A DNA stretch of 64,000 nucleotides from Escherichia phage SelmaRatti, in the sequence record MZ501103. One strand, 5' to 3'. Both the position numbers and the translations under genes were made by a program. The notes beneath the pieces were generated by a model that saw only the letters and a list, made by a program, of their open reading frames with translations, was not told the origin of the DNA and did no database searches. Shown here in pieces: positions 8,045 to 63,258 of this stretch (position 1 is its first letter; every line of letters begins with the position of its first letter).

Positions 8045-8533
8045 ATGGATCACAGAACAAGTATAGCACAAGCTCTGGTTGACCGAATAGCCAAACAAAT
8101 GGATGGCTCTCAACCAGATGAATATTTTAATAACTTGTATGGAAACGTCTCACGTCAAACTTATAAGTTTGAGGAGATACGAGAGTTTCCTTATGTAGCA
8201 GTCCATATTGGAACTGAAACTGGGCAGTATCTTCCTTCTGGTCAGCAGTGGATGTTTTTAGAACTTCCGATACTAGTATATGATAAAGAGAAGGATGGAG
8301 ATATTCAAACTTCCCTGGAAAAACTCGTAGCGGATATAAAAACCGTTATTGACACAGGTGGAAATTTAGAATATACTGTTAGTAAACCTAATGGATCGAC
8401 CTTCCTATGTGAGGCGACTGATATGATCATTACATCAGTTAGTACAGATGAGGGTCTACTGGCCCCATATGGTTTAGCAGAAATAAATGTAACAGTGAGG
8501 TATCAGCCTCCGCGTAGGTCACTTCGCAGATAA
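8045..8533 (+). CDS. hypothetical virion protein (tail terminator candidate)
   Basis: 162-aa ORF immediately upstream of tail tube gene; synteny only. Confidence 0.45.
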   Translation: MDHRTSIAQALVDRIAKQMDGSQPDEYFNNLYGNVSRQTYKFEEIREFPYVAVHIGTETGQYLPSGQQWMFLELPILVYDKEKDGDIQTSLEKLVADIKTVIDTGGNLEYTVSKPNGSTFLCEATDMIITSVSTDEGLLAPYGLAEINVTVRYQPPRRSLRR

Positions 8534-15462: not shown

Positions 15463-15482
15463 TATGGAAAAATAAAAATTTC

Positions 15483-15511
15483 TTGATAAAATTTTCTAAT
15501 ACTATTATAAT
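15483..15511 (+). promoter_or_regulatory. sigma70-type promoter (TTGATA-17-TATAAT) upstream of distal tail protein gene
   Basis: -35 15483-15488, -10 15506-15511, follows TMP terminator. Confidence 0.55.
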
Positions 15512-15538
15512 AATTGTATCTAAGAGGAGAAATTAACT

Positions 15539-31189: not shown

Positions 31190-31219
31190 ATTATACTAGA
31201 TTTCGAGAGAATTTAGCAA
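31190..31219 (-). promoter_or_regulatory. T5-type early promoter (TTGCTA-18-TATAAT) with conserved A+T leader
   Basis: reverse complement reads TTGCTA...TATAATATATACATAAATTCGAGGAG. Confidence 0.65.
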
Positions 31220-31302
31220 CTAAAATTTTTATTTTTCTGCTTCGGACTTTCTTATCAATCCGAAACTTTCTCTCTCAAATTTATGTATATATTATACATC
31301 AT

Positions 31303-32655
31303 TTATGAGCTGTTGCCAAATGCAATTTTAGCTAATTGAACTGCTTTCTCCGGAGTCATAGTAATAGTTTTCCACCCGTTGTTACGATATACTGCCATAC
31401 GTCCAGAAGCCTGTCTTAGTCCAGTGCCACCTTTCATAATTAGATCTACAACAATAGGGTCTAGTTTACCTTCAACAATACGTTGAACACGTCCTGCAAG
31501 CTGTTCAATGAGAGATTCATTATTAATGAGGCTTCCCATTATTAAACAAGACAGCTCATTAAGGGAAATACCTTCAGAGAAGATACTTTGAGCTGCTGCA
31601 AGTACACAAGGCCCACCTTTTGCTATATCTTCCTGAATTTTTAATCGGTCATCCAAGTGGGTTGCCCCTATAATTTCATATGTTGTAACACCACGCTGTG
31701 CAAGAGCTTCTAGTACTGTTTGAATTAACTCTGTTCTATCACTTACAATGAGTACTTTATGCCCCATATTCACGTATAAATGTGCTAGATTTATAATAGT
31801 CTCTCGATATTCAGGATGATTGTATACATCGTTAGCACGTAATGCCCATTGTACGTTTTGGTTCCCTGATAACTCAACAGGTACGGAGTACCTATGGATT
31901 GTAGGTGCAACAGTATTATTAACCGGTGGGCTAAAGATCTTATATCCAAAGAAATCTTTGAACATAACTTGCAAGCCATCCTTACGTTTTAACGTACCAG
32001 ATAGCCCAATCTTATAGCGAGCACATGATATTTCTAGGAAGTTAGTGAAAGTTGTAGCCACACAATGGTGAACTTCATCAACTATAACAGTACCGAATAC
32101 TTTAGAAAGATTATTCGCATGTTTATTCACTGTTTGAATATTACTGACCACAATTGGTGGATCAATATTGTATTTTCCAGAACCTATGATACCTGGTTCA
32201 AACCCAAACCATTTACGAACTTCTGCCGCCCACATTTCACGAATAGATGTGTTGGTACAAATTACCAAAGTTTTCTGGCCAAATTTATACGCAAGTGCAA
32301 GGGCTAAGATAGTTTTACCAAATCCAGGCTTACCATTAATAATACAGGTATCATCACACTCTTCATATATTGGAAGCTGGTCTTCTTCACGCAGTTTGAA
32401 CTTAGGTTTTGGTATATCTACCGGAGCTAATGTGCGTTTATCTACTAATTCGTATTTTACTCCTTTAGCATCTAATAAATCTAGACGCGTGATAGGAATC
32501 CACTTAATCTCTTTGGCAACAACACCACTATTCTTATACATAATAGGGTATTTACTAGTCATTGTCTCAATGTGATAAGTGGTTTGCTTACTACAATAAT
32601 CCCAAAGTTCATCATCGGGCTTGAAATAGGCTTTATTAGATATAACAACCTTCAT
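31303..32655 (-). CDS. SF2 DEXH-box helicase (T5 D10-like)
   Basis: 450 aa; Walker A GKPGFGKT, DEVHH box, C-terminal helicase motifs (QLAGRVQR). Confidence 0.8.
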   Translation of the reverse strand: MKVVISNKAYFKPDDELWDYCSKQTTYHIETMTSKYPIMYKNSGVVAKEIKWIPITRLDLLDAKGVKYELVDKRTLAPVDIPKPKFKLREEDQLPIYEECDDTCIINGKPGFGKTILALALAYKFGQKTLVICTNTSIREMWAAEVRKWFGFEPGIIGSGKYNIDPPIVVSNIQTVNKHANNLSKVFGTVIVDEVHHCVATTFTNFLEISCARYKIGLSGTLKRKDGLQVMFKDFFGYKIFSPPVNNTVAPTIHRYSVPVELSGNQNVQWALRANDVYNHPEYRETIINLAHLYVNMGHKVLIVSDRTELIQTVLEALAQRGVTTYEIIGATHLDDRLKIQEDIAKGGPCVLAAAQSIFSEGISLNELSCLIMGSLINNESLIEQLAGRVQRIVEGKLDPIVVDLIMKGGTGLRQASGRMAVYRNNGWKTITMTPEKAVQLAKIAFGNSS

Positions 32656-33149
32656 AATTTTATTCTAAGTCTAGGAATTTCAGGCTCCTCTTGATGGACT
32701 TGGTAAATAACCGGGCTATTATTTACTAGAATATAGCTTATATACGCTGGAACATAGGATAATACAAATGGATAAGGTACTTTAGCCACATAGCATTGGT
32801 ATTTTCCGTTATAAATTCTAGCCGAATGCAAAACTTTAGAGGTGGCAACATCATAGAACGTAGTTTTCTTCCAGTTAATAAGATTTCCATCAGAATCTAT
32901 AAATTGGCTACGCTTTGACCCAACTAATTGAGACAACATTGATATTCTACCTCTAATAGGATAGAGCTTGTACGGTAATTCCTTCCGTTTCTCAAATAGA
33001 ATAAGTCTACGTTGAGAAAAAGTGCCAGGCAACTTCCTGTTATCTAACACATATTTATTATATCTTGTTGTAATTACGGAATAATCACCTTCTTGCTCAA
33101 TTGATACAAACGCCCGTAAAGCATATACGGGCAATTTGAAATCAAGCAC
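32652..33149 (-). CDS. hypothetical protein
   Basis: 165-aa ORF, ATGA-coupled to helicase start. Confidence 0.45.
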   Translation of the reverse strand: MLDFKLPVYALRAFVSIEQEGDYSVITTRYNKYVLDNRKLPGTFSQRRLILFEKRKELPYKLYPIRGRISMLSQLVGSKRSQFIDSDGNLINWKKTTFYDVATSKVLHSARIYNGKYQCYVAKVPYPFVLSYVPAYISYILVNNSPVIYQVHQEEPEIPRLRIKL

Positions 33150-36100
33150 CTAAAATCCTTTTCACATTATCCAGATCTTTACATACAGCAATAAACTTAT
33201 CATCCTTGTACTTGCTGTGGTCTGGATGCTCTTTATCCATTGCAGCTAACTTCTTATACTCGAAATCTGCATCGAGTAATACACCCTTAACATAACGAGT
33301 ATACTCATCATCATCAATACAAGCGATTGATGGATGCTGCTTCTTCATCTTACCACAAGAGTAGTCACGAGAACCTCCAGCTTCAGAATCAGAATCAATA
33401 CCAATCGGACAACCAGGAATACTGATACCACGGTCTTTCTGAATATTACGAATCAGGATTTCATTGTATTGGTCGATCAAATCCTCACGAACAATAGCAA
33501 CTACGGAGTCGTGAACTAGCATAACAATCTTCATCTCTTGTTCTAGGCCAAGAGAAATGATCTCATTATCTGCATCTACAGCACCTAAAAGGAGACTATC
33601 AGAAGAAGCAGACTGAATGATTGCGTTAAATCCAGAACGGATTTCTTCACCTTGAACACCACGGTCTTCGGAGTGGATATTATGCAGACGACGTTTACGA
33701 CCAAAGTGACTGTAGATAAATCCATGATTCTTGATCTGATCATGGCACTTATCAATCCAACGCTTAAGCTGCGAGAACTGACCGAAGTAAGTTTCAATGT
33801 ACTCTTTAGCATCTGCAACAGTACACTCTACAAACGGTTCGCCTGTCTTAGCAGCCTGCTCCAGAAGAGCTTCGTTAACAGAATGAGCTACTTTAGATGG
33901 GCCAGAACCATACAAAATACCAAAGGTAATTGCTTTAGCTGCTTGACGCAGAGCTGGGAATAGCTTTTTAACATCACGAGGTTCGCATTGGAGCTTAAAT
34001 ACCATGTGTGCGATGTTAGAGTGGAAGTCAGGGTATTTATCAGGTTCATTTCTCATGTTGATAAATACTTGTTGCATATTTCTATCACCAGATAGAACAG
34101 CAGCATAATAAACTTCCGCAGTTGTTAAGTCCCATGCAATTACACGGTATCCAGGTGGTGCAACTACACAACCCTTGATAATAGATTCATCACGAGGTAA
34201 CTGTTGAAGGTTCAGTTTACCAGAAGAACTCAGACGACCAGAGGTAGTCATGTGTTCATGGAAGCCAGTACGAATGCAACCATCAGCATCAATACTCAGT
34301 AGAATCTTCTCAACATAAGTAGAGATCAGCTTAGTCAGCTTACGAATCTCTAGCAGAGTTTTAGCAATTGGATGCTGCGTAGCCAGTTCATTTAGAGCTT
34401 CTGCATCTGTAGAGTCTGCTCCAGTATCCGTCAATTTACCTGTTGGAGTTAAGCCAACATAATCAAACAGAAGAACACGTAGCTGCTTAACAGAGTTAGG
34501 ATTAAACGCTTCATTCTGGTCTTTCTCTAGCTGAACGACTTCTGGATAAGTATACAGTTTCTCACGAGCCTTATTCAGGTTATGGGTTAACTGGTACTGT
34601 GCTTCTTTCAAGCGATCAATAGAAATTGGTACACCACGATCCTCAACACGCTGGAGAAATACACAACCAGGCATTAGAACATCATAATACAGACTACAAA
34701 GTTTTTCATTCTTCTCAATTTTTGGTAAGAAGAAATTGTGCAAACGTATGGTGGCATCTGTATCTTTACAGTTGTGAACTACACCAACTTTAGTTACAAA
34801 GTTATGATTATCTTTTACATCTATGCACCAACTGGTAGAGTAACCTCTTCTAGAAGCTGGAACTATCCAATCCTCAATCCCATACACTTCTGCGTAGTAG
34901 TACTTAGATGTTGAAAAATCCCAAGTTCCTATTCCTACTAAATGCTTGAATCTTTCTGGCACCTTGTAAGCCATAGAGCTATGCATATATGGAGCAATCA
35001 AAGGGAATAGTTCTTCATTATCTAATACAAAGAACTGATTATTTTCTCCATCGTTATGGTAGTGTGCTGTAACGCCTAGATTTTTACACCATTCTATGAA
35101 ATTTTGCTGCTCTTCTCTACAATCAGCAACTGTTCTAGACCAAATGCGTGCATTTCCTTGTGGCAGGGTACCAGCATCTTGATACCAAATAGCTAGTGCT
35201 TTTTCATCTAACCCTTCTAGATTTTTCTTAGTAATTTTTAACTTATACTTTGTAGTATTATCTCGCACCTCTAAGGTAGAGAATAAGTCAGAATACTCAG
35301 AGGTATATGGGAAACTATACGTATATGCTTTTTTATCTCCCTTTGTAGAAACACTAAGAGTTGGTGTTTCTACTTGAGAAGCTGCCTTAAAATCTAGATA
35401 CTCTTTATGCGCTTCTGACTGTGTCAGTTGTAGACCAGCGCCCCATTTATTTCTAGATACCAGAGCACCATCCCCAAATAGGGATGCCATTAATACTTGC
35501 TTACTATCAGATGGTAAAGCAATTTCTTCAGTTTGGATTTTATCCTGTCCTGGAATAATATCTTGTACTTCTATGTATCCATTCTGAGTTAATACCCTAT
35601 GGTCTGGTGTAAATACTGGACCATTAATAGTACCACTAGAGTTTCTTTTCTGAGATTTAACTACTAACTTCTTCCATTTTTTGGATTTATGTTCATTTTT
35701 ATACCATCCAGTAATAGGTTTGTTCTCAAATTGCCCAGTTGATTCGTTGAATGATACTACAGCTTCTGTAGATTTGGTACGAACAAGTTCCCCAATAGTC
35801 TTCCAATTCCCTGAAGCCATCTTAACTTGGGAATCGTGAGTAAGACATGCATAAGGCCACATAATATCAAACGGAATTAAATCATAGGTGAAATCTTCTT
35901 TCTTGATTTTATGTGCTTTGCAGTAATCATCTTTGAACTTATCTAGTTCGAAGTCATAGTCACCCATATCTGTATACTTCATTGCTAGAGATTTCAAGCC
36001 ATGAGTACCACGACGTTCATCTAGAACATAGTGCTGCAACATGGTATCATGGAGCCTGCGTTCTTTATGTGCTTTATCAAAGGTAAGTCCCAGATGGTAC

Positions 36101-36786
36101 TTATAAAAGTGCATATCAAACTTCAAGTTGTGAAAAACAATAGTGTGGTTTTCACTATCCAGAATTTTCTGGAGGTAATATACTGCAACCTCTGTGAGAC
36201 AATCAGAATCTATATATACACCCTGATACTCTTGGTGAGAAATAGAAACACCAAGCAAATAACCATCTCGACAGTATAGTGCTGAGGTTTCGGAGTCGAA
36301 TGCGATAGGTCCGATAACCATATTATACACCATCTTGATATATTCTTCCGCCTCGTCAGGGTCAGTAATAGGACGGTAATCACCAGCTTTTGCAATCTTC
36401 TCACGACCATTGATAATATCGTGGATATTCTCTACTGTTGCATCAAAAACTGGTTTCATTTCAGGCTTAAAGTGTAACTGGGCTGGGCTGATACTCGCAA
36501 TCCAGTTAGCATATCCATTATACTCTACACGTTTACCAGTATAGTCACCAATGCCTTTCTTACCTGCGAAGTACAGGAAAGGTTCAGCACCTACTAGTAT
36601 AACAAAATCATAATCATTCGGATCAAATGGGTTTTCCGGAGTCCCGATAGTAATATGCTTTTTGAGCAAACGACCGGATAACTTCTCGTTACACATATGG
36701 AATACATCAACTTCCTCGCCGTATAGCTGGAAATGTTTATCATAACGAGTGTTATTTAGAGCTTTATCAACTACTGCGATTTTCAA
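33142..36786 (-). CDS. family-A DNA polymerase with 3'-5' exonuclease domain, interrupted by an intein
   Basis: 1214 aa; exo motif IAFDSETS, polymerase motifs RVIAWDLTTAEV and MLVHDS; TTG start with GAGGAG RBS; 359-aa insertion with intein hallmarks. Confidence 0.9.
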   Translation of the reverse strand: MKIAVVDKALNNTRYDKHFQLYGEEVDVFHMCNEKLSGRLLKKHITIGTPENPFDPNDYDFVILVGAEPFLYFAGKKGIGDYTGKRVEYNGYANWIASISPAQLHFKPEMKPVFDATVENIHDIINGREKIAKAGDYRPITDPDEAEEYIKMVYNMVIGPIAFDSETSALYCRDGYLLGVSISHQEYQGVYIDSDCLTEVAVYYLQKILDSENHTIVFHNLKFDMHFYKYHLGLTFDKAHKERRLHDTMLQHYVLDERRGTHGLKSLAMKYTDMGDYDFELDKFKDDYCKAHKIKKEDFTYDLIPFDIMWPYACLTHDSQVKMASGNWKTIGELVRTKSTEAVVSFNESTGQFENKPITGWYKNEHKSKKWKKLVVKSQKRNSSGTINGPVFTPDHRVLTQNGYIEVQDIIPGQDKIQTEEIALPSDSKQVLMASLFGDGALVSRNKWGAGLQLTQSEAHKEYLDFKAASQVETPTLSVSTKGDKKAYTYSFPYTSEYSDLFSTLEVRDNTTKYKLKITKKNLEGLDEKALAIWYQDAGTLPQGNARIWSRTVADCREEQQNFIEWCKNLGVTAHYHNDGENNQFFVLDNEELFPLIAPYMHSSMAYKVPERFKHLVGIGTWDFSTSKYYYAEVYGIEDWIVPASRRGYSTSWCIDVKDNHNFVTKVGVVHNCKDTDATIRLHNFFLPKIEKNEKLCSLYYDVLMPGCVFLQRVEDRGVPISIDRLKEAQYQLTHNLNKAREKLYTYPEVVQLEKDQNEAFNPNSVKQLRVLLFDYVGLTPTGKLTDTGADSTDAEALNELATQHPIAKTLLEIRKLTKLISTYVEKILLSIDADGCIRTGFHEHMTTSGRLSSSGKLNLQQLPRDESIIKGCVVAPPGYRVIAWDLTTAEVYYAAVLSGDRNMQQVFINMRNEPDKYPDFHSNIAHMVFKLQCEPRDVKKLFPALRQAAKAITFGILYGSGPSKVAHSVNEALLEQAAKTGEPFVECTVADAKEYIETYFGQFSQLKRWIDKCHDQIKNHGFIYSHFGRKRRLHNIHSEDRGVQGEEIRSGFNAIIQSASSDSLLLGAVDADNEIISLGLEQEMKIVMLVHDSVVAIVREDLIDQYNEILIRNIQKDRGISIPGCPIGIDSDSEAGGSRDYSCGKMKKQHPSIACIDDDEYTRYVKGVLLDADFEYKKLAAMDKEHPDHSKYKDDKFIAVCKDLDNVKRILGA
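34771..35847 (-). mobile_element. intein with LAGLIDADG homing endonuclease domain inside DNA polymerase (residues 314-672)
   Basis: Begins with Cys after MWPYA, ends VVHN followed by Cys; LAGLIDADG-like LMASLFGDGAL and LAIWYQDAGTL; block F-like WCIDVKDNHNFVT. Confidence 0.8.
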
Positions 36787-36847
36787 ATTTAATCTCCTCT
36801 TGGTAAGTAAGTATAACTTCAGTGTTTCTTCTCTAACTTACCAATAT

Positions 36848-36877
36848 ATTATACCAAATCTTTAAGCGATTCAGCAA
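36848..36877 (-). promoter_or_regulatory. sigma70-type promoter (TTGCTG-18-TATAAT) upstream of DNA polymerase
   Basis: -10 36848-36853, -35 36872-36877 on - strand. Confidence 0.5.
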
Positions 36878-37739
36878 CTAAAATTTCAATACGTTTTGCT
36901 AACATATCAATCTCTTCTTTATTTAAGTCACCAGGGTCTTTACCTTCAGGCAGAAGAAAGTTAGCAATTACAGGTGTTAAACGCGTTTTTGTACGAATTA
37001 GCTTGGCCAATGCTTGTGCAGCTTTAGTACCAGAAGCATCATTATCTAGTAAGATAACAACAACTTTAACACCAGCAATAATATACGGACTGAACTTATC
37101 TGCAATGTTATCCGAAGTAAACTGATGTGTACCAAAGCAGCAAGAAGCATAGTCTATACCATTATCCTCTAGGTTCAGCATATCAAAGATACCTTCAACT
37201 AAAATAAGAACTGGAGTATTATATCGTACAGGAAAAATTGGCGGTGAAACTTGTTTTGGTTTTACTAAGTATTTAGGAGGGGCAGAACTGTTTATAGAAC
37301 GACCCAAAAATAGGATATTGCGTCCAACAGCATCTGTGATTGGGAATACAATTCTGCCTTCCCAGTTCTCTTGATGTTGGAAAGCAAAATACTTCTTCAA
37401 GGTCTTAGAACTGATACCTCGGAAATCACCTTCAAAAAGAAAGGCAGATTCTGGGATTGCAAGATTCGTAGATCCATTTCTAATCTCTGAAATCTTTTTA
37501 CGTACCTGCGATAGTCTTGGAGACTGTCGGTACTGAGTCTCATTAAAATAATGGTAAATGCTCGGTATACCTTTACCGAAGCCACAACTCAAGCAGTGCA
37601 TGACCCCTGACTCGGGGTCAATACGTAGACTTGGGTGTTTATCGTCATGATCTGGATTGAGGCAGCATATAAGAATATCCCCGCCTGTATCCTTATACTC
37701 AATTCCTTTTAGATCAAGTAACTCTGTTATTCTACTCAT
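36849..37739 (-). CDS. DNA primase (DnaG-like)
   Basis: N-terminal CHC2 zinc finger (C..C...H.C.SC), Toprim motifs LVEGIFD and LLDNDASG. Confidence 0.85.
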   Translation of the reverse strand: MSRITELLDLKGIEYKDTGGDILICCLNPDHDDKHPSLRIDPESGVMHCLSCGFGKGIPSIYHYFNETQYRQSPRLSQVRKKISEIRNGSTNLAIPESAFLFEGDFRGISSKTLKKYFAFQHQENWEGRIVFPITDAVGRNILFLGRSINSSAPPKYLVKPKQVSPPIFPVRYNTPVLILVEGIFDMLNLEDNGIDYASCCFGTHQFTSDNIADKFSPYIIAGVKVVVILLDNDASGTKAAQALAKLIRTKTRLTPVIANFLLPEGKDPGDLNKEEIDMLAKRIEILVAESLKDLV

Positions 37740-40830: not shown

Positions 40831-40860
40831 CAAATTTCTTCCTTATCAATTTATATAAAT

Positions 40861-40889
40861 ATTATAGCAAGTATTTAAGCATTTAGCAA
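40861..40889 (-). promoter_or_regulatory. T5-type early promoter (TTGCTA-17-TATAAT) in ligase spacer
   Basis: reverse complement TTGCTAaatgcttaaatacttgcTATAAT then ATTTATATAAATTGATAAGGAAG leader. Confidence 0.65.
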
Positions 40890-41032
40890 CTACAATTTTA
40901 ACTAACTTTGCTTACCCTCGCCATAACTTTCTATCCCTCAACTGAATGATAATAGTATATACCTAAGCGGCGAAAATGTCAATAACCACTTTATAATTCC
41001 GATATGGTAGATGGGTAGCAAAGGGTTATGTA

Positions 41033-42277: not shown

Positions 42278-42307
42278 TTTGCAACCCTCTCATTAATTTA
42301 TATAAAT

Positions 42308-42336
42308 ATTATATAACAAAACTGAGTTGAAAGCAA
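42308..42336 (-). promoter_or_regulatory. T5-type early promoter (TTGCTT-17-TATAAT)
   Basis: -10 42308-42313, -35 42331-42336; conserved ATTTATATAAATTAATGAGAGGG leader. Confidence 0.65.
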
Positions 42337-42342
42337 ATACAT

Positions 42343-42654
42343 TTATTCTTTTTCCGCCAGGCGTTTAGCTTCTTTTTCTACTTCTAATAAAACCTCACTA
42401 TTAGATAATATTTTAGTAAATGCCTTAAATAAATGAGATGTTGTTTCTAGAGTGTATGGCATACTGAATCCACTTTTTGTTGGAAACCATTCACCTTCTA
42501 TATCTTGGAGCCAGTACCTAATTCCTAAGTATAGATTCCCCCTAAACTCAGATACAGTTAGCCTAACCTGTTGGCCATCTTCTCTCTCCCAGATAACTAT
42601 GGACTGATCATCTACATGTCCAACATAATCCTGATTTACATTATCTCCTGACAT
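42343..42654 (-). CDS. hypothetical protein
   Basis: 103-aa ORF. Confidence 0.45.
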   Translation of the reverse strand: MSGDNVNQDYVGHVDDQSIVIWEREDGQQVRLTVSEFRGNLYLGIRYWLQDIEGEWFPTKSGFSMPYTLETTSHLFKAFTKILSNSEVLLEVEKEAKRLAEKE

Positions 42655-43301: not shown

Positions 43302-43348
43302 TATACTTTATATACAACAAAGGAGAGCCGAAGCTCTCCTTTTCTTTA

Positions 43349-44065: not shown

Positions 44066-44122
44066 ATTTTATATTTCCTTAATTAAGAATTAAACAGAAT
44101 AGTTCTTTCAAACTATGAGAAT

Positions 44123-44151
44123 ATTATATCAAGAATTATAGGATTAAGCAA
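44123..44151 (-). promoter_or_regulatory. sigma70-type promoter (TTGCTT-17-TATAAT)
   Basis: -10 44123-44128, -35 44146-44151 on - strand. Confidence 0.55.
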
Positions 44152-44171
44152 CTGAAATTTTTCGGTAATTG

Positions 44172-45099: not shown

Positions 45100-45130
45100 A
45101 TTTAAACTCCTCTCTCAAATTTATGAATCT

Positions 45131-45159
45131 ATTATACAGAAATTTTTTGAACTATGCAA
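45131..45159 (-). promoter_or_regulatory. T5 PN25-like early promoter (TTGCAT-17-TATAAT)
   Basis: reverse complement TTTGCATagttcaaaaaatttctgTATAATAGATTCATAAATTTGAGAGAGGAG, nearly identical to the T5 PN25 promoter as I recall it. Confidence 0.8.
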
Positions 45160-45167
45160 ATAAATTT

Positions 45168-45410
45168 TTATGATTCCTTGAGCAAAGAAGCAAGTTCAGC
45201 ATAGACTTTATCTAATTCAAAGCCGATGCGAAGAGACACGTTTGTTTTCCGTTGTTTAAGTAACCACTCGGATATGTTAGGGATGCCAGCTAGTCTAGCA
45301 GGAACCACCCTACATAGCTTTTCCGAAGTGTCGTAAACAGGAAATTTATGTTCTTTTACTGGAAACTTCCTTGTTTCCCATTTTTTATTCTTCACTGTCA
45401 TTTCTAGCAC
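45168..45410 (-). CDS. hypothetical protein
   Basis: 80-aa ORF overlapping end of upstream gene. Confidence 0.4.
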   Translation of the reverse strand: MLEMTVKNKKWETRKFPVKEHKFPVYDTSEKLCRVVPARLAGIPNISEWLLKQRKTNVSLRIGFELDKVYAELASLLKES

Positions 45411-48174
45411 CTAGCTCCGCCATTGCTTCATCATGCATATGTTTCTCCTCATCAGTCATAAACTTATACGGGATTGGCATACACTCGATTTTACAATAAG
45501 TCCTGTACCAGTCTACAATATTCTCCGTGTTCATATCCTTGCCAATACCCATCATACCAAGATACATTCTTGCATATTTTGGGTTAGCACTCTGACCTGT
45601 TTTAAGGAAGAAATCTTTCTTCTTACCTTTCAGAGCTTCTATGAATGGTTTGATAGTGACATTTGAACACTTCTTAATATCTTCCCAGAACATCTCGTGC
45701 ATCTTATGGAAGAATGCAGCTCGATCATTAGGTTTATCCTTGATATATTGTTCAACATGCTCAACTGTTACATCTTTAATAGACTCAAGATGATAGTAGC
45801 GAACAAGAAGTAGTTTAGCTTCATACGCATCTGCATGGCGTGGAGCACAATAATCAGGAGTTGAATACAAAATAGCTTTGATTCGCTCTTCCGTATATTC
45901 CTTCCCAGCACCTTCGATAGTTCCCCAGCTTTCACTGAAAATATCAATAGTTGCACCCTGATCAAGCAAGTAATAGCGTAGAGTACTAGTATAGTTTCTA
46001 GATTCCAGCTCCCTGCGACGTGCATATAGTTGCTGTGCTAACTCCAGCCAACCCTCATCAATGTTATATTGCTCAGAACCTGCGGAGAATCCACTCGTAG
46101 ATTTATCAATAAAATAATAGATATTCTGAGCACCACGGTCGCGCCTGATTGCTTGAAAACGCATGTTTGGCGCTTGGTTACTGGTTCTAGTGATAACGAA
46201 TACGTTATCAAAATAGTTGAAGTCAACACCACTAGTTACGGATGGACTACATAATAAGCAATCAATTTGTTGATCAATCAGCTCATTAGTTGTGTAATCC
46301 AGAATACGTCTAATATCCACATCAGACGTAGAATTTGAGTGGATTTCCTTAACTAACGCACCCGTATTACGACGTAATGCCATACCCTTCTCATTCAGCT
46401 CATCAGGGCCACAATCAGATACCAGAATAGATTTCTCACCCATCTCTAGAGAAGTCTGAAGTGCAACCCAAATACTGGATTCATCAGGAAACTCATAAGC
46501 ATGAGCTTTTGACAGCATTTTACGGTGATGATTATAAAATGCAACCGGTTTATCAAACTCGATCAAAGAACCATATGCTTCAATTGTTTCTGCACTAATA
46601 TCACCATCTGATAATATAATGATTTTTGCAGTTGCAAGAATATCCCGAAGAACCTGAATACATTCACGACGTTGTTTAACAACCGGGGCGAATAATAGGT
46701 CGTTCATTACTGCATCACATTCATCGATAAAGATTGCATCAATTTGACCAATAAAACTCTTGAACTTATGCAAAGAGTGAATAGTTGTGGACATACGGTC
46801 AATAGCACCACGCTTAAAATTAAGCATATCTACAGACTTATCATATTGTCCTGCACTAAATTTCTTAGCATTGGAAGATACTAGCGCTCTAGTATTTGTA
46901 ACTGCTAAAAAGTTGCCAGGAAGAACACCTGCGTCCAGCCATTTAGTTACTGCCGTAGTTTTACCAGTACCAAGACTTGCCTTAACAAAGGTTATGTGGC
47001 CTTTTGGAGGCACAATGTTAATCTTCAGGTATGGAACTTCTGGTGGAGAATCCACTTCTAATTTCTTGAGTGGAACACCCTTCAGATTTAATGGAATCTC
47101 ACGTTTAGAATTATTAACAAACGCTTTGAGAGCCTGCTTACGACCGTTATTAAAGTAATCTTGAATATTACGACTGTTATCTTTAGTTGCAATATATTCA
47201 GATAAAGCGGGTTTAATCTCACGTTCTAGCCATGCGAAATCAACACCATCCTCTAATGCTCTATGGTATAGTTTAGGGATAATACGCAAGTACACCCCAT
47301 CCTCAGCTTCTTCCAATTCGCTGATAGTTTCTTCTACTTTATCAGACGCGATCTTTTTGCCTTTAATTTGGTCAAGTAAGGAATAGAATTCCTCTTTGAA
47401 CTCCCCTCTAGTTGTTTCATAGTCAACCAGATTATTAGGCAAATTTACCTTCGAACCTTTAACATACACCAGACGTGGCTTACTATCCGCTTTAAACGGA
47501 TCAACAATACCATCACTAAATAAAGGATCGGCAAAATAATGGAGCTGGACAGATGAATAATAAGCTAAGTCGGCAATGTCAAAACCGAATTTTTGCTTAC
47601 TACTATCATTGATAGACGTAAATAAGAACTTTAACTGACCTTGAGTTACCTTGACGTTAGATTCTAGCATTAAGTGCATTCGGATACCTGGTTTTAGGCC
47701 AGCCGAAGACGATGCATGAGCAATAAACCCTGCATCAAGAGGAAACATGTCCTCACTAATACTATTCAACATCTTAATAATGTGACGGGCCATGCCTACA
47801 AGATTAAACTTGTCGTACCCACCGGTATCTAGGATACCATCCACGTCCATAGCAATAATATTGCTAGGGTTAGACACATTAAAGTTACCTTTCTTACGTC
47901 GCACATTATTTTTAGGTGCAAGACATCGACCTCGTACCGCAACGATATGAGGGTCAGACGTTAAACGTCTCATAAGTGGTAACATTTCGGCAAGGCTTTG
48001 CGGGTCGTGCTCTTCTATTACATCAAATTTGAAGGGCATAGAGGCTGGTTTACCTTCTGGATGCTCTTTCGAGAATCGCTTGGCAAAGGTATAATCTTCC
48101 GCTTTGATTTCTCGCCAAATACCTGTTGCTAAATCACGAGAAAATCCGGCGTGACCTTGAAGAATAGAAAACAC
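45385..48174 (-). CDS. putative replication origin-binding protein / helicase-like ATPase
   Basis: 929 aa; Walker A ASLGTGKTTA, DExx-like FIDECD; GTG start with AGGAG RBS. Confidence 0.6.
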   Translation of the reverse strand: MFSILQGHAGFSRDLATGIWREIKAEDYTFAKRFSKEHPEGKPASMPFKFDVIEEHDPQSLAEMLPLMRRLTSDPHIVAVRGRCLAPKNNVRRKKGNFNVSNPSNIIAMDVDGILDTGGYDKFNLVGMARHIIKMLNSISEDMFPLDAGFIAHASSSAGLKPGIRMHLMLESNVKVTQGQLKFLFTSINDSSKQKFGFDIADLAYYSSVQLHYFADPLFSDGIVDPFKADSKPRLVYVKGSKVNLPNNLVDYETTRGEFKEEFYSLLDQIKGKKIASDKVEETISELEEAEDGVYLRIIPKLYHRALEDGVDFAWLEREIKPALSEYIATKDNSRNIQDYFNNGRKQALKAFVNNSKREIPLNLKGVPLKKLEVDSPPEVPYLKINIVPPKGHITFVKASLGTGKTTAVTKWLDAGVLPGNFLAVTNTRALVSSNAKKFSAGQYDKSVDMLNFKRGAIDRMSTTIHSLHKFKSFIGQIDAIFIDECDAVMNDLLFAPVVKQRRECIQVLRDILATAKIIILSDGDISAETIEAYGSLIEFDKPVAFYNHHRKMLSKAHAYEFPDESSIWVALQTSLEMGEKSILVSDCGPDELNEKGMALRRNTGALVKEIHSNSTSDVDIRRILDYTTNELIDQQIDCLLCSPSVTSGVDFNYFDNVFVITRTSNQAPNMRFQAIRRDRGAQNIYYFIDKSTSGFSAGSEQYNIDEGWLELAQQLYARRRELESRNYTSTLRYYLLDQGATIDIFSESWGTIEGAGKEYTEERIKAILYSTPDYCAPRHADAYEAKLLLVRYYHLESIKDVTVEHVEQYIKDKPNDRAAFFHKMHEMFWEDIKKCSNVTIKPFIEALKGKKKDFFLKTGQSANPKYARMYLGMMGIGKDMNTENIVDWYRTYCKIECMPIPYKFMTDEEKHMHDEAMAELGARNDSEE

Positions 48175-48672
48175 AACAATACTCCTGTGTTGGTTAATCG
48201 AAAATCTTTTCTTTAGGACTATTCAGAAAGAATAGAACAACTATTACTACTATTTACGTAAACATCAATTATCATCAAGCAATATGAATAAGTTATCATA
48301 TCTCAGTGCTGTGCTCTCTTCGCTCATATACAGAATAGAACCTAGGTCATTGGCCGCTAAGCCGATTCTATTTGTCCTCACTATCCTATTGGTAGGTGAC
48401 TACTGTACGTGCCGCCATTCGCTGCTCTTTTCGTTCGCACCCCCATATAAAGCTCTGCCTATATAACGAGCTAAATATGCACGGTTTGGATTTACCTTTC
48501 CGAATTCAGGGTACACAGATCACTTAATTGAAGATTAACTAATGCAATATAAACACTAGTAACAGTTAAAACAACCCTTAATGGGGCAGCCTAACTGTTC
48601 CGTATCGCGGATTGTAAACAAGAAAAATTAGCAAAATCAATTTTTACTAATGTCTCTCAATTCAATATAAAT

Positions 48673-48701
48673 ATTATATCAAGATTTTGAGCACCGTGCA
48701 A
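48673..48701 (-). promoter_or_regulatory. T5-type early promoter (TTGCAC-17-TATAAT) with no adjacent ORF
   Basis: -10 48673-48678, -35 48696-48701; conserved ATTTATATTGAATTGAGAG leader. Confidence 0.55.
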
Positions 48702-48740
48702 GTAAATTTTTCCCAAAGGTGCTATCAGTGTCTTTGAGTA

Positions 48741-48769
48741 CAGAGAAAACCGAGCCAAAATGACTCGGT
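48741..48769 (-). terminator. possible terminator hairpin after paralog gene
   Basis: 6-bp stem accgag/ctcggt with U-rich tail on - strand. Confidence 0.4.
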
Positions 48770-49625: not shown

Positions 49626-50075
49626 TTACACCTTAAATTGTTGTAAGGATTTACACATTTCAATATCTGGGCTAAATTCTAGCATATAGCTAACAGCTTT
49701 TAAATCTTGAAGATTTATCCCAGTCCTACCGTTGACTATAACCGTTGGATACTGATACATCATAGCACCAGCACGCTCAATAAGGTCATCAACGTTAGTA
49801 GTCAAATTTACTACTTGACCAGGATATTTCTTATACCATTCCCCAATACGCAAGTGTGCAAGGTTAGGTTCAACAGTTTCTAGCTCTTCACGTCGCTTGT
49901 TGTAAAACATATGGGTTTTATGATAAAAGTTACCACGAAAGGCATGAATATTACATACCTCTTCTAAGTCATAATCATCCCACAATGCTTTACCACTAGC
50001 AGTATCAGTACGGAAGGCTCGTACACCACTTTCAACACTCAAACCTACACCACTGATAATAATTAATCTACGCAT
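49626..50075 (-). CDS. Sir2-like (sirtuin N-terminal half) NAD-binding protein, truncated
   Basis: ISGVGLSVESGVRAFR resembles sirtuin GAGIS..SGI..FR; LW, FY..R.E motifs; NLTTNVDDLIERAG resembles ITQNID.LH.RAG; no zinc ribbon or catalytic HG. Confidence 0.5.
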   Translation of the reverse strand: MRRLIIISGVGLSVESGVRAFRTDTASGKALWDDYDLEEVCNIHAFRGNFYHKTHMFYNKRREELETVEPNLAHLRIGEWYKKYPGQVVNLTTNVDDLIERAGAMMYQYPTVIVNGRTGINLQDLKAVSYMLEFSPDIEMCKSLQQFKV

Positions 50076-50289
50076 TTTTCACCTGTTCTCTAAAGTTTTG
50101 CCCAATACTGTCTAACAGCTCAGCTAATTCTTTATTGCCTTTCTCCATTAAGGTATTAGCAATAACTTCTAGCATAGTAGCGCAGGATTCAACACCATCC
50201 TTATAGCCAGTTTCCCAGTGCTGCATTAATGCGTTTTCCAAAGCGGTGTTTAAATCACTGCCTGGTAGCATCGGCTTCGAGAATGCCAT
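50068..50289 (-). CDS. hypothetical protein
   Basis: 73-aa ORF. Confidence 0.4.
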   Translation of the reverse strand: MAFSKPMLPGSDLNTALENALMQHWETGYKDGVESCATMLEVIANTLMEKGNKELAELLDSIGQNFREQVKNA

Positions 50290-50817: not shown

Positions 50818-50844
50818 ATACCCTCCTCTCAAATTTATAAATCT

Positions 50845-50873
50845 ATTATACATATATTTTTAGCTGAAAGCAA
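50845..50873 (-). promoter_or_regulatory. T5-type early promoter (TTGCTT-17-TATAAT)
   Basis: reverse complement TTGCTT...TATAATAGATTTATAAATTTGAGAGGAGGG then ATG. Confidence 0.7.
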
Positions 50874-50907
50874 ATAAAATAAAAGCCAGGTCGACTAGCA
50901 ACCTGGC
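50872..50907 (-). terminator. rho-independent terminator after nrdD
   Basis: 7-bp stem gccaggt/acctggc then TTTTATTTTATTT on - strand. Confidence 0.6.
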
Positions 50908-50915
50908 TGATTAGC

Positions 50916-53592: not shown

Positions 53593-53620
53593 TCCACTTC
53601 TCCACAGAATTTTTACACCT

Positions 53621-53649
53621 ATTATACTAAACATTATCCACTATGTCAA
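53621..53649 (-). promoter_or_regulatory. sigma70 consensus promoter (TTGACA-17-TATAAT) for the triple zinc-ribbon endonuclease gene
   Basis: -10 53621-53626, -35 53644-53649 on - strand; divergent from phoH promoter. Confidence 0.6.
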
Positions 53650-53786
53650 TTAAAATTTTCTTTCGCCATCTAATACTGTAATATTTCGCGTATAAATAAA
53701 TGATTATCTAGTATCATATTTCTACCTTTATAAGCAAGTAAATTTTTTATTTAAAAGCAATATCATAGGTTTATTTAAAATTATAC

Positions 53787-53815
53787 TTGCTTTTTGCTGT
53801 AAACCTTGTTATAAT
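53787..53815 (+). promoter_or_regulatory. sigma70-type promoter (TTGCTT-17-TATAAT) upstream of phoH
   Basis: -35 53787-53792, -10 53810-53815. Confidence 0.6.
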
Positions 53816-53891
53816 ATATTTGTAAGTTGATAAACAAGATCTCTTTGTTGATCCTCTGTTAGAAGCGAAGTACACTATAGGAGTGTTATTT

Positions 53892-54644
53892 ATGGGAAAA
53901 GCACGTCAAAAAAGAGAGAACCGCAATGGTTCAAGAAAGCGTGGCAACAAATATGAGAATAACGTAATTCAGGCTGATTTTTCTAATGATTACGCTAACC
54001 CAGTTGCTAAATCCCTAGTAGGTAAAAACCGAGAGCAAAAATCATATATCAATATGATCAAGAACAACACAGTGACTGTGGGTATTGGTGAGCCAGGTAC
54101 TGGTAAAACCTTTATCCCGTCTGTTCTTGCAGCTCAGGAACTCGTAGACATTCACTCAGATATTGAGCAAGTGATTCTAGTCCGTCCTAATGAACCTCTA
54201 GGTAAGTCTCTTGGTATGCTTCCTGGTGATCTAGCAGAAAAGCTAGAGCCTTGGTTAGAGCCAATAGCTGATGGTATGAAATGGGCCATCGGTGATCATG
54301 CCTATAATGGGTATGTCGAACGTCAGAAAATTAAATTTTTGGCTGTAGAACATGCTCGTGGCAGAACTTTCAACAACTCCTATGTAATTGTCGATGAAGC
54401 TCAGAATATTTCCGTTGAGGCAATGATTTGTCTCCTAACTCGTGTAGGACAAGACTGCCGTTTAATTATCTGTGGAGATATAGCTCAGAAAGACATTAAA
54501 GGTGACTCAGGTCTAGCACTCCTTATGGAAGTCTATGAAAAATACGAAAATGCCCCATTCTCAATGATCGAATTGATTGATAACGTTCGTTCTGTTGAGT
54601 CTAAAGCATTCTATGATATTTTTAAAGACATGGGGAAGGTGTAA
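53892..54644 (+). CDS. phoH: PhoH-like ATPase
   Basis: Walker A GEPGTGKTF, Walker B IVDEAQN; ATG at 53892 after TAGGAG. Confidence 0.85.
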   Translation: MGKARQKRENRNGSRKRGNKYENNVIQADFSNDYANPVAKSLVGKNREQKSYINMIKNNTVTVGIGEPGTGKTFIPSVLAAQELVDIHSDIEQVILVRPNEPLGKSLGMLPGDLAEKLEPWLEPIADGMKWAIGDHAYNGYVERQKIKFLAVEHARGRTFNNSYVIVDEAQNISVEAMICLLTRVGQDCRLIICGDIAQKDIKGDSGLALLMEVYEKYENAPFSMIELIDNVRSVESKAFYDIFKDMGKV

Positions 54645-54843: not shown

Positions 54844-54920
54844 GTGGCCAAAAACTAGACTGACAACACAGAAGGCCTGGGTATGAAAATGCTCGGGCCT
54901 TTTCTATCAGAAAATTTTAT

Positions 54921-54949
54921 TTGCCAAATGACTGAGAATAAAGTAAACT
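54921..54949 (+). promoter_or_regulatory. possible promoter (TTGCCA-17-TAAACT) upstream of nrdA
   Basis: weaker match to sigma70 consensus. Confidence 0.35.
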
Positions 54950-54987
54950 ATTTCCTAAATCCTGATAACTATAAAAAGGAAAGCCAA

Positions 54988-57900
54988 ATGAGCCATCGCA
55001 TTGAAAAAGTAATTAAACGTGACGGTACTGTAGAAGACTTTGCTCCTGAAAAACTCAATGGTTGGGCAGAGTATGGTTGCAAAACAGTTGATGTAAGTTG
55101 GTCAGCCATTACTATGGCTGCTCAAAAAACCCTACCTAAAGGGGTTGTAGATTCCGACACTCTTATGGACGCATTAATTAAAGCTGCTGAAAGTCTTATC
55201 AAAGATAACCCAGCATACGATGTGCCAGCAAAGGAATTACGTCTTGCGCAAATGCGTAAGCGCCTTTATGACTCTTTCGAACCACCTTCTCTACGCTTCT
55301 TCCATGACCACATGGTTAGCGTAGGTACATGGGAAGACATGAGTGCATGGATTACCGATGAGCAATTTGAAGCTCTGAATCAGGTTATCGACCATGATCG
55401 TGACCGTCTTTTTACTAGTGGTGGGCTGAAGCAGTTCTTTGATAAGTATTCACGTCGTAACATAGCCACTGGTGAAATTTACGAAACCCCTCAATTCGCC
55501 TATATGGGTATGGCAATGGCGATGTTATCTCAACCTAACTGGACAATTCTAGATGCAATCGATCTCTACAATGCAATGTCGCTCCACAAGATCAACGTTC
55601 CTACGCCGCCATTGGTTGGCTTGCGCTCTAGTGACCGTGGATTTGCTAGTTGCTGCCTCGTGGATTCCACTGACACATTGGATTCAATCGACACAGCAGA
55701 GCACATCGTCTTCAAAATGGTCGCAGCCAGAGCGGGAATCGGGTATCATCTTGAAAGCAGATCAATTGCTGATCCGGTGCGAAATGGGGCATTCCCGCAT
55801 TCCGGAAAACTGCCATATTATCGACACATTGACCGCTCAGTAAAGGCCAATACTCAGCAAACTCGTGGTGGTTCTGCTACAGTGTCTTATCCATACTTCG
55901 ACCCTGAAATCATTCAATTGATGCAGGTTAAGCAACAACGTGCTACAGATGAGAATAAAATCGATAAGATGGATTATTCTCTGAGCTTTAACAATCTTTT
56001 GTTAAAACGTTATCTTAAAAACGAAGATATTACGCTAATGTCATACTTCTATGCTCCAGAAGTTCATGAAGCGTTTTATAGTGATGACGAGGCTAAATTT
56101 GAAGAAATCTACGTGGCAGCGGAGAAACGTGTGGCATCTCTTACAAAAATCGACCACGAAGGAAAAACAGTTCCAGCAGCTCCTAAAGTCTCTGCAAAAG
56201 AAATCCTAGATACTTGGCTACGTATCCGAATGGAAACAGGACGTATGTACGCTCACCACATCGGGGAATCTAATCGTCACGGTAACTTTCTTGATCCAAT
56301 CCGTATGACTAACCTTTGTGTAGCTCCAGAAACAAAAATTTTAACCAAAAATGGTAACATAGAGATTATTGATTTAGTTGGTAAAGAAGTAGAGATTTGG
56401 AACGGGCAAGAATGGTCAACAGTTATCCCTGCTAAAACTGGGGAAGCTCAGGAGTTGATGAAAATCACATTCTCTGATGGATCTACTATTGAATCTACTC
56501 TTTATCATAAGTTCTACCACCAGCCCAAATATGTAAGAGAGGATCGTAGTACCTCCTTCAAACAGGGTCTAGAAGAGGTACGAGCAGTAGACTTGCAAGT
56601 AGGTATGAAAATGCCTAAATTTAGTAATCCTATTGTAGATCATGGAAATATGGTACTAAAATCTCCTTATACTAACGGTTTCTTCACTGGAGATGGAACT
56701 TATGGAAGACATGGAGAACCTAAGCTGTACTTCTATGAAAAAGGAGGCAAACTACCATTAGTGGATAAAATTGACGCAAAGATTCAGGGAAGTGGATTAC
56801 TGGACAGCACAGGTAGACTGAGTTATATTGTTAAGTCTGATTTAATGCCGAAGTATTTTGTACCTGGCCCAGAATACACTATTGATAGCCGTATCAAATG
56901 GTTAGAGGGATATTTAGATGCAGATGGCTGCATACAGAAAAATGGCACAACCCCTAGTATTGTGGTTGCTTCGGCAGAGCCTGATTTTCTAAGTAAAGTG
57001 AAGGATTTGTTACTAGAATTGGGGATTACTAGCAAGATTATTTTAGGACGCCAAGAAGGTGACTACGAGTTACCAGATGGTACTGGTAGTAGTAGTAAAC
57101 TATACCACTGCAAGGAGACTAGTAGGCTTATTGTGGGGAGTAGTGGCTTCTGGAAACTTAAAGATTTAGGACTCTCTTTGGATAAAGAGAAACTCTTAAA
57201 CCTAACACGCCCCAATAGAGACGCAACCCGTTTTGTAACTGTAACTAACGTTGAGTTTACTGGTCGTATTAGTGATACCTATTGCTTTACAGAACCTAAA
57301 TTAAACTTGGGTGTATTTAATGGCATTTTAGCTGGTAACTGTGTAGAGATTACTCAGCCTACACGCCCGTTCCACCACATCACAGAGCTGTATAAGACAA
57401 AAGAGCAGCTTGATCAAATGAAGCCGGAGGATATTGGTGAAGTATCTCTGTGTAACTTAGGTGGTGTTGTACTTGGACGCATGGAATCTCTGGCTGAGTG
57501 GGAAAAAACTTGCTACATCCTTCTGAAATTCGTTGATACAATTATTGAAATTCAGGATTATCCGTTCCCAACTATGGAATATACGGCTAAGAAACGTCGT
57601 AATGTTGGTATTGGCCTGATGAACGCAGCAGGTGCAATGGCAGCAGAAGGTCTGGCTTATGAAGGTATTGAAGCCCGTAACTGGATTCACCGTGAGGCTG
57701 AAAAACTGTCTTACTTCCTGCATAAAGCCTCTGTACGCCTAGCTAAAGAACAGGGCGCATGTGAGTGGTTTGATCGTACTAAACCATCTAAAGGAATTCT
57801 GGTAATCGACACTTACAAGAAAACTGTTGATGAACTGGTATCCGTAGGTCTAGAAATGGATTGGGAATCTCTGCGTGCAGATATTCTGAAATACGGTATG

Positions 57901-58353: not shown

Positions 58354-58380
58354 GGAGATCTTCGGGTCTCCTTTTTCTTT
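58354..58380 (+). terminator. rho-independent terminator after nrdA
   Basis: stem GGAGATC/GGTCTCC with UUCG tetraloop followed by TTTTTCTTT. Confidence 0.8.
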
Positions 58381-58390
58381 GAAATTTTAC

Positions 58391-58419
58391 TTGCTAATCG
58401 CTACCAGATTTGCTATAAT
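58391..58419 (+). promoter_or_regulatory. sigma70-type promoter (TTGCTA-17-TATAAT) upstream of nrdB
   Basis: -35 58391-58396, -10 58414-58419; follows nrdA terminator. Confidence 0.65.
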
Positions 58420-58450
58420 ATTCCTGAAATAGTGAGAAAGAGGAAAATCA

Positions 58451-61734: not shown

Positions 61735-61760
61735 ATAGCCCTTCGGGGCTATTATATTTA
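61735..61760 (+). terminator. terminator hairpin after GIY-YIG gene
   Basis: stem ATAGCCC/GGGCTAT with TTCG loop, T/A-rich tail. Confidence 0.55.
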
Positions 61761-61768
61761 AATTTCAT

Positions 61769-61797
61769 TTGCTTATTTAGTGAAATTTAAATATAAT
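61769..61797 (+). promoter_or_regulatory. sigma70-type promoter (TTGCTT-17-TATAAT)
   Basis: -35 61769-61774, -10 61792-61797. Confidence 0.6.
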
Positions 61798-61831
61798 ATA
61801 CTCAATTAATAAACAAAGGATAAATACGAAT

Positions 61832-62820: not shown

Positions 62821-62840
62821 TAAATAAATTAAAAATCTTC

Positions 62841-62869
62841 TTGCTTAAAGCCCTCTAATTTAGTATAAT
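62841..62869 (+). promoter_or_regulatory. sigma70-type promoter (TTGCTT-17-TATAAT)
   Basis: -35 62841-62846, -10 62864-62869. Confidence 0.6.
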
Positions 62870-62896
62870 ATTCGTATTGAAAGTGAGGAGGGCTTT

Positions 62897-63175: not shown

Positions 63176-63191
63176 TTTTTAAAAAATTCAG

Positions 63192-63220
63192 TTGCTAAAC
63201 GCTTCAAATTCTCGTATAGT
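63192..63220 (+). promoter_or_regulatory. sigma70-type promoter (TTGCTA-17-TATAGT)
   Basis: -35 63192-63197, -10 63215-63220. Confidence 0.5.
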
Positions 63221-63258
63221 ATACTTCATAAATTGATAAACAAAAAGGAAAACAAATA

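Follow-up and report, generated by a model that had tools for sequence, protein, structure and literature searches.

The repeated module found on the minus strand of a 64,000-nucleotide stretch of the genome of Escherichia phage SelmaRatti (MZ501103; the whole of this stretch is referred to below as the window) is the well-known early promoter family of phage T5; the original prediction of this module is correct and describes something that was already known. The sites are very probably sigma-70 early promoters of a T5-like phage, each consisting of a composite element of about 70 bp that includes a transcribed block promoting escape. The present work adds to this the confirmation of the family in SelmaRatti, the delimitation of the block to -6..+17, its independence from proximity to the RBS, and figures for its conservation across genera. 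The "T5 promoter" of expression vectors derives from this family, N25 is a standard model of promoter escape, and the recognition of the family in a new T5-like genome aids the annotation of transcription units, early/late class and leader lengths. Individual T5 promoters were reportedly cloned and sequenced by Gentz and Bujard in 1985, and work on the role of the N25 transcribed region is said to have started with Kammerer et al. in 1986.

The DNA examined is that of a T5-like phage (Demerecviridae), and a 2-kb probe taken around the finding matched 469 phage records, the top ones being T5-like Salmonella, Escherichia and Klebsiella phages with 97% identity. The first 25 kb of the window carry late (tail) genes, and the remainder (about 25.1-64 kb) is colinear with about 45-82 kb of T5, in reversed orientation; this part of T5 is its early region. 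In the T5 reference used (RefSeq NC_005859) promoters are annotated as 75-nt features, viz. P-N25 before D2, P-N26 before D3, one without a name before the ligA block, P-K28b and P-K28a before ligB, one before pol and P31A/P31B before T5.125/D11, with more features towards nrdD and on the opposite strand, P-H207 included. All eight minus-strand sites originally proposed were present, each consisting of TTG, a 17/18 bp spacer and TATAAT followed by a related A+T-rich block, and all of them are orthologues, by both position and sequence, of annotated T5 promoters (P-N25, P-N26, P-K28a, P31A, P31B and three without a name). Their identity as PN25-like early promoters is thus borne out by the synteny with T5, the annotation at the same positions and the identity of 62-75 of the 75 nt. 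The list of minus-strand sites was incomplete, as 36853 and 53626 are also members of the class, and the class, which was proposed to drive minus-strand early genes, does so at the eight sites but is also found on the plus strand (53810, 58414, 61792, 62864 and 63215), and thereby serves early transcription units that diverge from one another. The promoters are listed below with the -35 hexamer, spacer length and -10 hexamer, the identity to the T5 orthologue (out of 75 nt), the initial transcribed sequence (ITS) and, as "leader", the number of the 18 specified positions matched in the leader string originally proposed, A.ATT.ATAAATTTGAGAGG. The +1 positions were transferred from the N25 register (PMC7472727).

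31164..31233, minus strand: P31B orthologue, site 31190; TTGCTA-18-TATAAT; 75/75; leader 14/18; ITS ATAAATTCGAGGAG; gene start at 31082, about +102.
31265..31334, minus strand: P31A orthologue, site 31291; TTGGCA-17-TATAAT; 75/75; leader 16/18; ITS ATAAATTTGAGAGAG; no start codon next to it, read-through of a hairpin into P31B, gene start at about +203.
36822..36891, minus strand: Ppol orthologue (T5 70987-71061), site 36853; TTGCTG-18-TATAAT; discriminator ATATTG; ITS GTAAGTTAGAGAAG; pol start codon at +56.
40835..40904, minus strand: P-K28a orthologue, site 40861; TTGCTA-17-TATAAT; 75/75; leader 12/18; ITS ATAAATTGATAAGGAAG; ligB ATG at +25.
40928..40997, minus strand: P-K28b orthologue, a variant in tandem with K28a; TTGACA-17-TATACT; ITS ATTCAGTTGAGGGA.
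42282..42351, minus strand: orthologue of T5 65284-65358 (no name; before the ligA block), site 42308; TTGCTT-17-TATAAT; 62/75, the most diverged; leader 12/18; ITS ATAAATTAATGAGAGGG; GTG at +25.
44097..44166, minus strand: P-N26 orthologue, site 44123; TTGCTT-17-TATAAT; 70/75; leader 8/18; discriminator ATTCTC and ITS ATAGTTTGAAAGA, both kept in Klebsiella phage Sugarland; D3 start codon at +52, a long leader.
45105..45174 (-50..+20), minus strand: P-N25 orthologue, site 45131, upstream of D2; -35 TTGCAT (45159-45154), 17 bp, -10 TATAAT (45136-45131); 69/75; leader 17/18; +1 A at 45124; ITS ATAAATTTGAGAGAGGAG; D2 ATG at 45099 (+26).
48647..48716, minus strand: orthologue of T5 58999-59073 (no name), site 48673; TTGCAC-17-TATAAT; 68/75; leader 12/18; ITS ATTGAATTGAGAGAC; start at +493, GTG 48174 of the origin-binding-protein gene.
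50819..50888, minus strand: orthologue of T5 55708-55782 (no name), site 50845; TTGCTT-17-TATAAT; 72/75; leader 18/18; ITS ATAAATTTGAGAGGAGG; ATG at +22; directly 3' of a terminator-like hairpin (50908-50884).
53595..53664, minus strand: nrdD upstream promoter (position of T5 53884-53958), site 53626; TTGACA-17-TATAAT; ITS AAAAATTCTGTGGAG; ATG at +23.
53772..53841, plus strand: divergent early promoter, orthologue of T5 53638-53712, site 53810; TTGCTT-17-TATAAT; discriminator ATATTT; ITS GTAAGTTGATAAAC.
58376..58445, plus strand: early promoter, orthologue of T5 50061-50135, site 58414; TTGCTA-17-TATAAT; ATG at +26.
61754..61823, plus strand: early promoter at the position of T5 46937-47011, site 61792; TTGCTT-17-TATAAT; weak match to the ITS consensus; ATG at +29.
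62826..62895, plus strand: early promoter, orthologue of T5 46337-46411, site 62864; TTGCTT-17-TATAAT; ATG at +22.
63177..63246, plus strand: P-H207 orthologue, site 63215; TTGCTA-17-TATAGT, then ATACTTC and ATAAATTGATAAAC, with the ATAAATT block displaced by one base.

The -35 element, spacing, -10 element, discriminator and ITS are common to the T5 early promoters and their orthologues in the window, which differ from them only by small substitutions. The copy at 45131 (minus strand 45131-45174, tcataaaaatttaTTTGCATagttcaaaaaatttctgTATAATagattcATAAATTTGAGAGAGGAGtttaaatATG), in the upstream A-tract of which the stop codon of the upstream gene falls, had been described as nearly identical to T5 PN25, and from -19 to +20 it does not differ from it at all. 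Outside this segment, TTGCTT of T5 is replaced here by TTGCAT (-31/-30), the first half of the spacer is altered, the upstream A-tract is shorter by one A, and there is one extra T at +21.

TATAAT hexamers occur 85 times on the two strands, and a TTG is present at a distance of 17/18 bp in 18 cases, of which 15 form a single class. All 15 members of this class are located 5' of a co-oriented gene, and 14 of them lie in the early region (31-64 kb). The pattern TTGCWW-N16-19-TATAAT was matched 10 times in the window in comparison to 0.69 expected matches, a number that was reached in 0/100 shuffles; the motif is thus clearly enriched. A scan of 31-51 kb with a generic sigma-70 consensus showed no enrichment (65 matches vs 60.9), indicating that the signal is specific to the T5-type module and does not reflect promoter-likeness in general.

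When the class members are anchored on their -10 element, positions -45..-40 are occupied in the consensus by an A-tract plus T and -35..-32 by TTGC; after an A+T-rich spacer and TATAAT come A at -6, T at -5, the word ATAAATT (+1..+7) and a run rich in purines and poor in C that extends to about +17. The upstream A-tract and T, which make the module longer than originally described, are well represented, the A being present at -45..-42 in 10-13 of 14 copies and the T at -40 in all 14. A -35 TTGC, at the 17-18 bp spacing, is present in 12/15 class members. The -35 hexamer TTGC(T/A)(T/A) had been taken to be shared by the named sites, and this holds for six of them, the exceptions being 48673 with TTGCAC and 31291 with TTGGCA, a hexamer also found in its T5 orthologue P31A. 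Within the A/T-rich discriminator, A(T/G)(A/T)T(T/A)N, the A at -6 is found in 14/14 copies and the T at -5 in 12/14, and 5-7 of the 7 positions of ATAAATT are matched in 11/15 copies. The ITS can be written approximately as ATAAATT(T/G)GA(G/A)AG (72% purine, 5% C), and the overall composition of +1..+20 on the non-template strand is A 48%, G 24%, T 23% and C 5%, in comparison to a window background of 20% C.

The downstream limit of the block is also well defined. Past about +17 the information profile is at noise level, and in leave-one-out matrix analysis the segment -6..+17 set class members apart from the remaining TATAAT sites (Mann-Whitney p about 1e-9), whereas no separation of the class from these sites was seen for +18..+39 (p = 0.14). 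When the whole window was searched with a matrix based upon the downstream part only, each of the top eight matches was located directly 3' of a TATAAT. The proposed leader string itself was matched at 8-18 of its 18 specified positions at the eight sites, as compared with an average of 5.5/18 for the 77 other TATAAT hexamers. However, the full ATAAATTTGAGAGG with at most one mismatch is present at three sites only (31271, 45111 and 50825), and with 3 mismatches it was not enriched in the window (14 found vs 12.7 expected), so that the signal appears only when the register is anchored. Hence, a related block does follow all eight promoters as was proposed, but the part of it that is truly common is -6..+10.

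An additional conserved position lies within the spacer, where a C at -25, often as part of GCT (TTGCTAAAYGCT; e.g. window 40879-40877 and 50863-50861, minus strand), carries information equal to that of the -35 positions. This C is present in 11/13 promoters from the window, 11/15 from T5, 10/18 from Sugarland and 5/7 from GSW6, the background being about 20% C, and no mention of it was found in the part of the literature that was covered.

The same module has been described for the T5-like phage AKFV33, whose genome has 32 such promoters with the consensus TTGCTw, 17-18 bp, TATAATA, with AAAAATT at -43 and TAAATT at +1 (Niu et al. 2012, PMC3326045). The description there is at the level of a sequence logo, and no mention of the purine-rich extension to +17, the -25 C or conservation across genera was found in the text covered here (PMC3326045). 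The promoters lambda PR, PL and T7 A1 are likewise used by the host RNAP holoenzyme and possess near-consensus hexamers, UP-like upstream DNA, a 6-bp discriminator and an output limited by escape (PMC12464699). They differ from the T5 class in being single copies with unrelated transcribed sequences, whereas the members of the T5 class recur within a genome and have a +1..+10 word in common.

The conservation of the different parts of the module was examined using eight orthologous D-region promoters from Klebsiella phage Sugarland (genus Sugarlandvirus). The identity between the window and Sugarland was 100% for the -10 hexamer, 88% for the -35 hexamer, 80% for +1..+10, 71% for the discriminator, 64% for +11..+20, 53% for -55..-37, 52% for the spacer and 49% for +21..+40, and the first 450 nt of the downstream genes were 64-73% identical. 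As judged from this comparison, in which +1..+10 ranks above both coding DNA and the spacer, the transcribed block appears to be under selection. Sugarland and Erwinia phage KEY, which was examined by pattern search only, carry the same module, including TATAAT-AG(A/C)TT(C/T)-ATAAATT(T/G)GA, and the module is thereby kept in phages of Escherichia, Salmonella, Klebsiella and Erwinia. When a 201-nt probe was compared with distant relatives, the match at the DNA level was confined to the cassette portion of the probe and occurred at promoters of unrelated genes. The comparison across genera provides modest support for the first ~10 transcribed bases being a selected part of the promoter, and it raises no new question.

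Published work on N25 provides a likely reason for such selection. N25 has a near-consensus core, a UP element and an A+T-rich spacer element; its complexes with polymerase are very stable, and its output is limited by escape, at +11 (PMC12464699). Escape is fastest with the native ITS, which is purine-rich and lacks C up to +30, and productive synthesis in a purified system without translation drops about 10-fold when the "anti" sequence takes the place of +3..+20 (PMC12464699). Changes in the ITS shift in vivo strength by more than 10-fold (PMC5961368), and purine content correlates with productive yield (PMC5961368; PMC10911233). These published escape experiments concern N25 alone and not its sibling promoters (PMC12464699). 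The class in the window exhibits over +1..+20 the same compositional signature as the published N25 ITS, namely a purine-rich, C-poor non-template strand as expected of an ITS optimized for escape.

Based upon these observations, the sites, which correspond one for one to T5 PN25, PN26, PK28a/b, Ppol, P31A/B, PH207 and their siblings without a name, would be early promoters read by unmodified host RNA polymerase. Each is a composite of about 70 bp, made up of an A-tract at -45..-40 resembling a UP element, TTGCTw, an A+T-rich spacer of 17-18 bp, a perfect TATAAT and an A/T-rich discriminator followed by the ITS. By analogy with N25, the very tight upstream contacts would make escape rate-limiting, and the native purine-rich and A+T-rich transcribed sequence would speed up escape and thereby set the output. 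The shared block may thus have been kept because a tightly bound polymerase can then clear the promoter fast. In promoters with a start codon at +22..+29, this stretch of 20 bases would double as the whole 5' UTR, which would be short and unstructured, with an A/U-rich beginning and a Shine-Dalgarno GAGG/GGAG. Of the co-evolving unit originally envisaged, the part comprising the promoter and the initial transcribed region is supported by the conservation across genera together with the published effects of the native N25 ITS on escape and output, whereas the RBS does not belong to it where the leader is long. Two observations count against this explanation: purine and A+T composition alone does not account for the retention across genera of the specific word ATAAATT, and the plus-strand members match the ITS consensus weakly (2-5/7 positions) although they, too, are presumably early promoters.

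The late region contains a single strong site, at 15506 on the plus strand, which lies within 15463-15537, the orthologue of the late promoter P-G25 of T5 (92%), and the site at 8372 on the same strand lies within 8329-8403, the orthologue of the T5 late promoter P-J5 (100% identical). These two orthologues, which have TTGATA/TTGACA at -35 and lack ATAAATT, make a helpful comparison with the early class. The full module is present in the T5 early lpp promoter, located elsewhere in the genome. T5 Ppol transcripts show early kinetics in vivo (PMC7472727). The restriction of the block to early promoters in the window agrees with the report that it is chiefly the discriminator that separates early from late promoters in T5, with ATATT present in all known early ones (Klimuk et al. 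2020, PMC7472727).

In view of this restriction, it is possible, though not likely, that -6..+10 serves mainly as a label of temporal class, whereby a phage factor reads the discriminator and start and turns the early promoters down at the onset of the late stage. The factor might conceivably be gpT5.026 bound to the beta subunit of RNA polymerase, or some early shut-off protein. gpT5.026 reduces the binding of RNAP to an N25 -12/+2 non-template oligonucleotide 8-fold, and its mutant shows more early and fewer late transcripts (PMC7472727); the sequence-specific conservation across genera also exceeds what a compositional rule would need. However, the in vitro effect of gpT5.026 is moderate and limited to -5/+2 (PMC7472727), host RNAP by itself suffices for high activity of N25 when the ITS is the native one (PMC12464699), and no operator-like dyad symmetry or repeat is visible in the block. 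A temporal label of this kind and selection for rapid escape are compatible and not mutually exclusive.

The lengths of the leaders bear upon a different explanation for the block. The leader had been proposed to end in the RBS, and this is true for 40861, 42308, 45131 and 50845 (start at +22..+26) but not for the other four named sites, whose leaders are 52 (44123), about 102 (31190), about 203 (31291) and 493 nt (48673) long. In the class as a whole, start codons are found at +22..+29 in 8/15 members, with GAGG/GGAG at +10..+17, and the RBS is part of the unit only in these short-leader promoters, where the promoter, transcribed region and RBS overlap physically within an intergenic gap of about 68 nt. 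It is unlikely that the block has been kept for a role in the RNA, with the unstructured A/U-rich 5' end acting as a translation enhancer (S1 binding) or as a determinant of stability and its location inside the promoter being a by-product of the very short leaders. The positions of the start codons and Shine-Dalgarno sequences in these eight promoters fit such a role, as do the low C content of the block (5%) and the weak folding of the N25 leader, in which a marginal hairpin of -1.8 kcal/mol carries the Shine-Dalgarno sequence in its loop. However, ATAAATT is equally well kept in promoters whose start codons are 33-490 nt away (5.9 vs 5.8 of 7 positions in long- and short-leader promoters, respectively; p = 1.0), and TTGAGAGA is found at two sites that have no start codon close by (31291 and 48673), both of which observations indicate that the RBS is not the cause of the conservation. 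The effects of the N25 ITS, moreover, arise in purified transcription systems in which there is no translation (PMC12464699). A 5' hairpin considered for the pol leader was not supported (-2.2 kcal/mol, z = +1.13).

Some sequence identities between the genera involve promoters that are not orthologous. A comparison of the window with 43.5 kb of Sugarland gave 38 exact matches of 18 nt or more; 13 of them fall in cassettes, and cassettes account for 2.3% of the window. The longest of these (32 nt) covers -16..+16 of the 48673 promoter (48651-48682) and corresponds to about 12729-12760 of Sugarland L007, and the 29-nt N25 core (45108-45136) corresponds to about 15035-15063 of Sugarland L002. Both matches, which span the -10 element, discriminator and ITS, pair non-orthologous promoters, and the Sugarland orthologue of the 48673 promoter has another ITS subtype. 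The identical cores suggest either that cassette cores have been exchanged between promoter positions or that they are under extreme constraint. In addition, the identity to T5 switches from 95% to low or none at or beside cassettes at about 53.7, 42.3, 62.9 and 61.8 kb, and at 61792 the similarity to T5 persists only in the terminator and part of the promoter. Other boundaries of T5 identity in this comparison of two genomes lie at endonuclease/intein insertions or inside genes, and the evidence for shuffling at the cassettes is here anecdotal. T4-type phages also possess reiterated early promoters conserved beyond the hexamers, and their PeSL cassettes have been proposed to be sites of modular gene shuffling. 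A stem-loop partner as in the T4-type PeSL was not found in the T5 cassettes.

A portable address label, consisting of the -16..+17 core, swapped between promoters by recombination and read by a phage factor for early timing, may be compatible with the identical cores across genera, the boundaries of T5 identity at promoters and the conserved -25 C, and we consider it quite unlikely. That the copies are alike merely through recent duplication or gene conversion, with the transcribed part unselected, is very improbable, for although identical -16..+16 blocks occur at non-orthologous promoters across genera and spacer starts such as TTGCTTTCA are common to some copies, the module persists in the phages of four host genera and orthologous spacers and upstream flanks have diverged to about 52% identity while the -10, -35 and +1..+10 segments remain at 80-100%, an uneven divergence that points to position-specific constraint rather than uniform recent copying.

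A number of other features were observed in the vicinity of these promoters. In the P31A/P31B tandem (window 31190-31283, minus strand) a hairpin, GUUUCGGAUU...AGUCCGAAGC, is located between the two promoters, and its stem is also present in Sugarland, where the loop is shorter. The P31A ITS UUUGAGAGAG can pair with the P31B spacer UUCUCUCGAAA (MFE -23.3 kcal/mol, z = -4.75); this pairing was rejected as a conserved element as the partners are absent in Sugarland, and it is regarded here as either lineage-specific or coincidental. At 12925-12937 of Sugarland L007, the annotated start of the gene after P31B is only 4 nt 3' of TATAAT, which implies that the P31B transcript is leaderless or that translation occurs from the P31A transcript only.

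Terminator-like hairpins on the minus strand just upstream of the promoters at 50845 (50884-50908) and 48673 (48749-48769) form terminator-promoter junctions, and a bidirectional terminator-like hairpin is present at 43319-43342 (both strands). Between the 48673 promoter and the origin-binding-protein gene, a segment of about 490 nt without an ORF (48174-48666, minus strand) is 98-99% identical to T5, which is above its surroundings. Another promoter-like site, TTGATT-18-TACAAT, lies within it at 48640-48611, and the only repeat in it is the 10-nt word GTTCTATTCT, present in three copies. Rfam covariance models at the gathering score gave no match in the whole window, this segment included. 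The segment could be an origin or a regulatory region.

Two of the genes in this region are longer than their T5 counterparts. The DNA polymerase ORF (33142-36786, minus strand) encodes 1214 aa in comparison to 855 aa in T5, and the in-frame insertion that lengthens it, about 360 aa in size (aa ~323-672; about 34767-35849), has a match to LAGLIDADG_2 and a weak match to Intein_splicing, below Pfam's cutoff; this insertion is probably an intein that is absent from T5. The nrdA ORF (54883-58344, plus strand) encodes 1153 aa in comparison to 811 aa in T5, and its insertion (about 56321-57340), with an in-frame LAGLIDADG_3 domain (aa 672-758) within the reductase barrel domain, is probably a second intein or a homing-endonuclease insertion.
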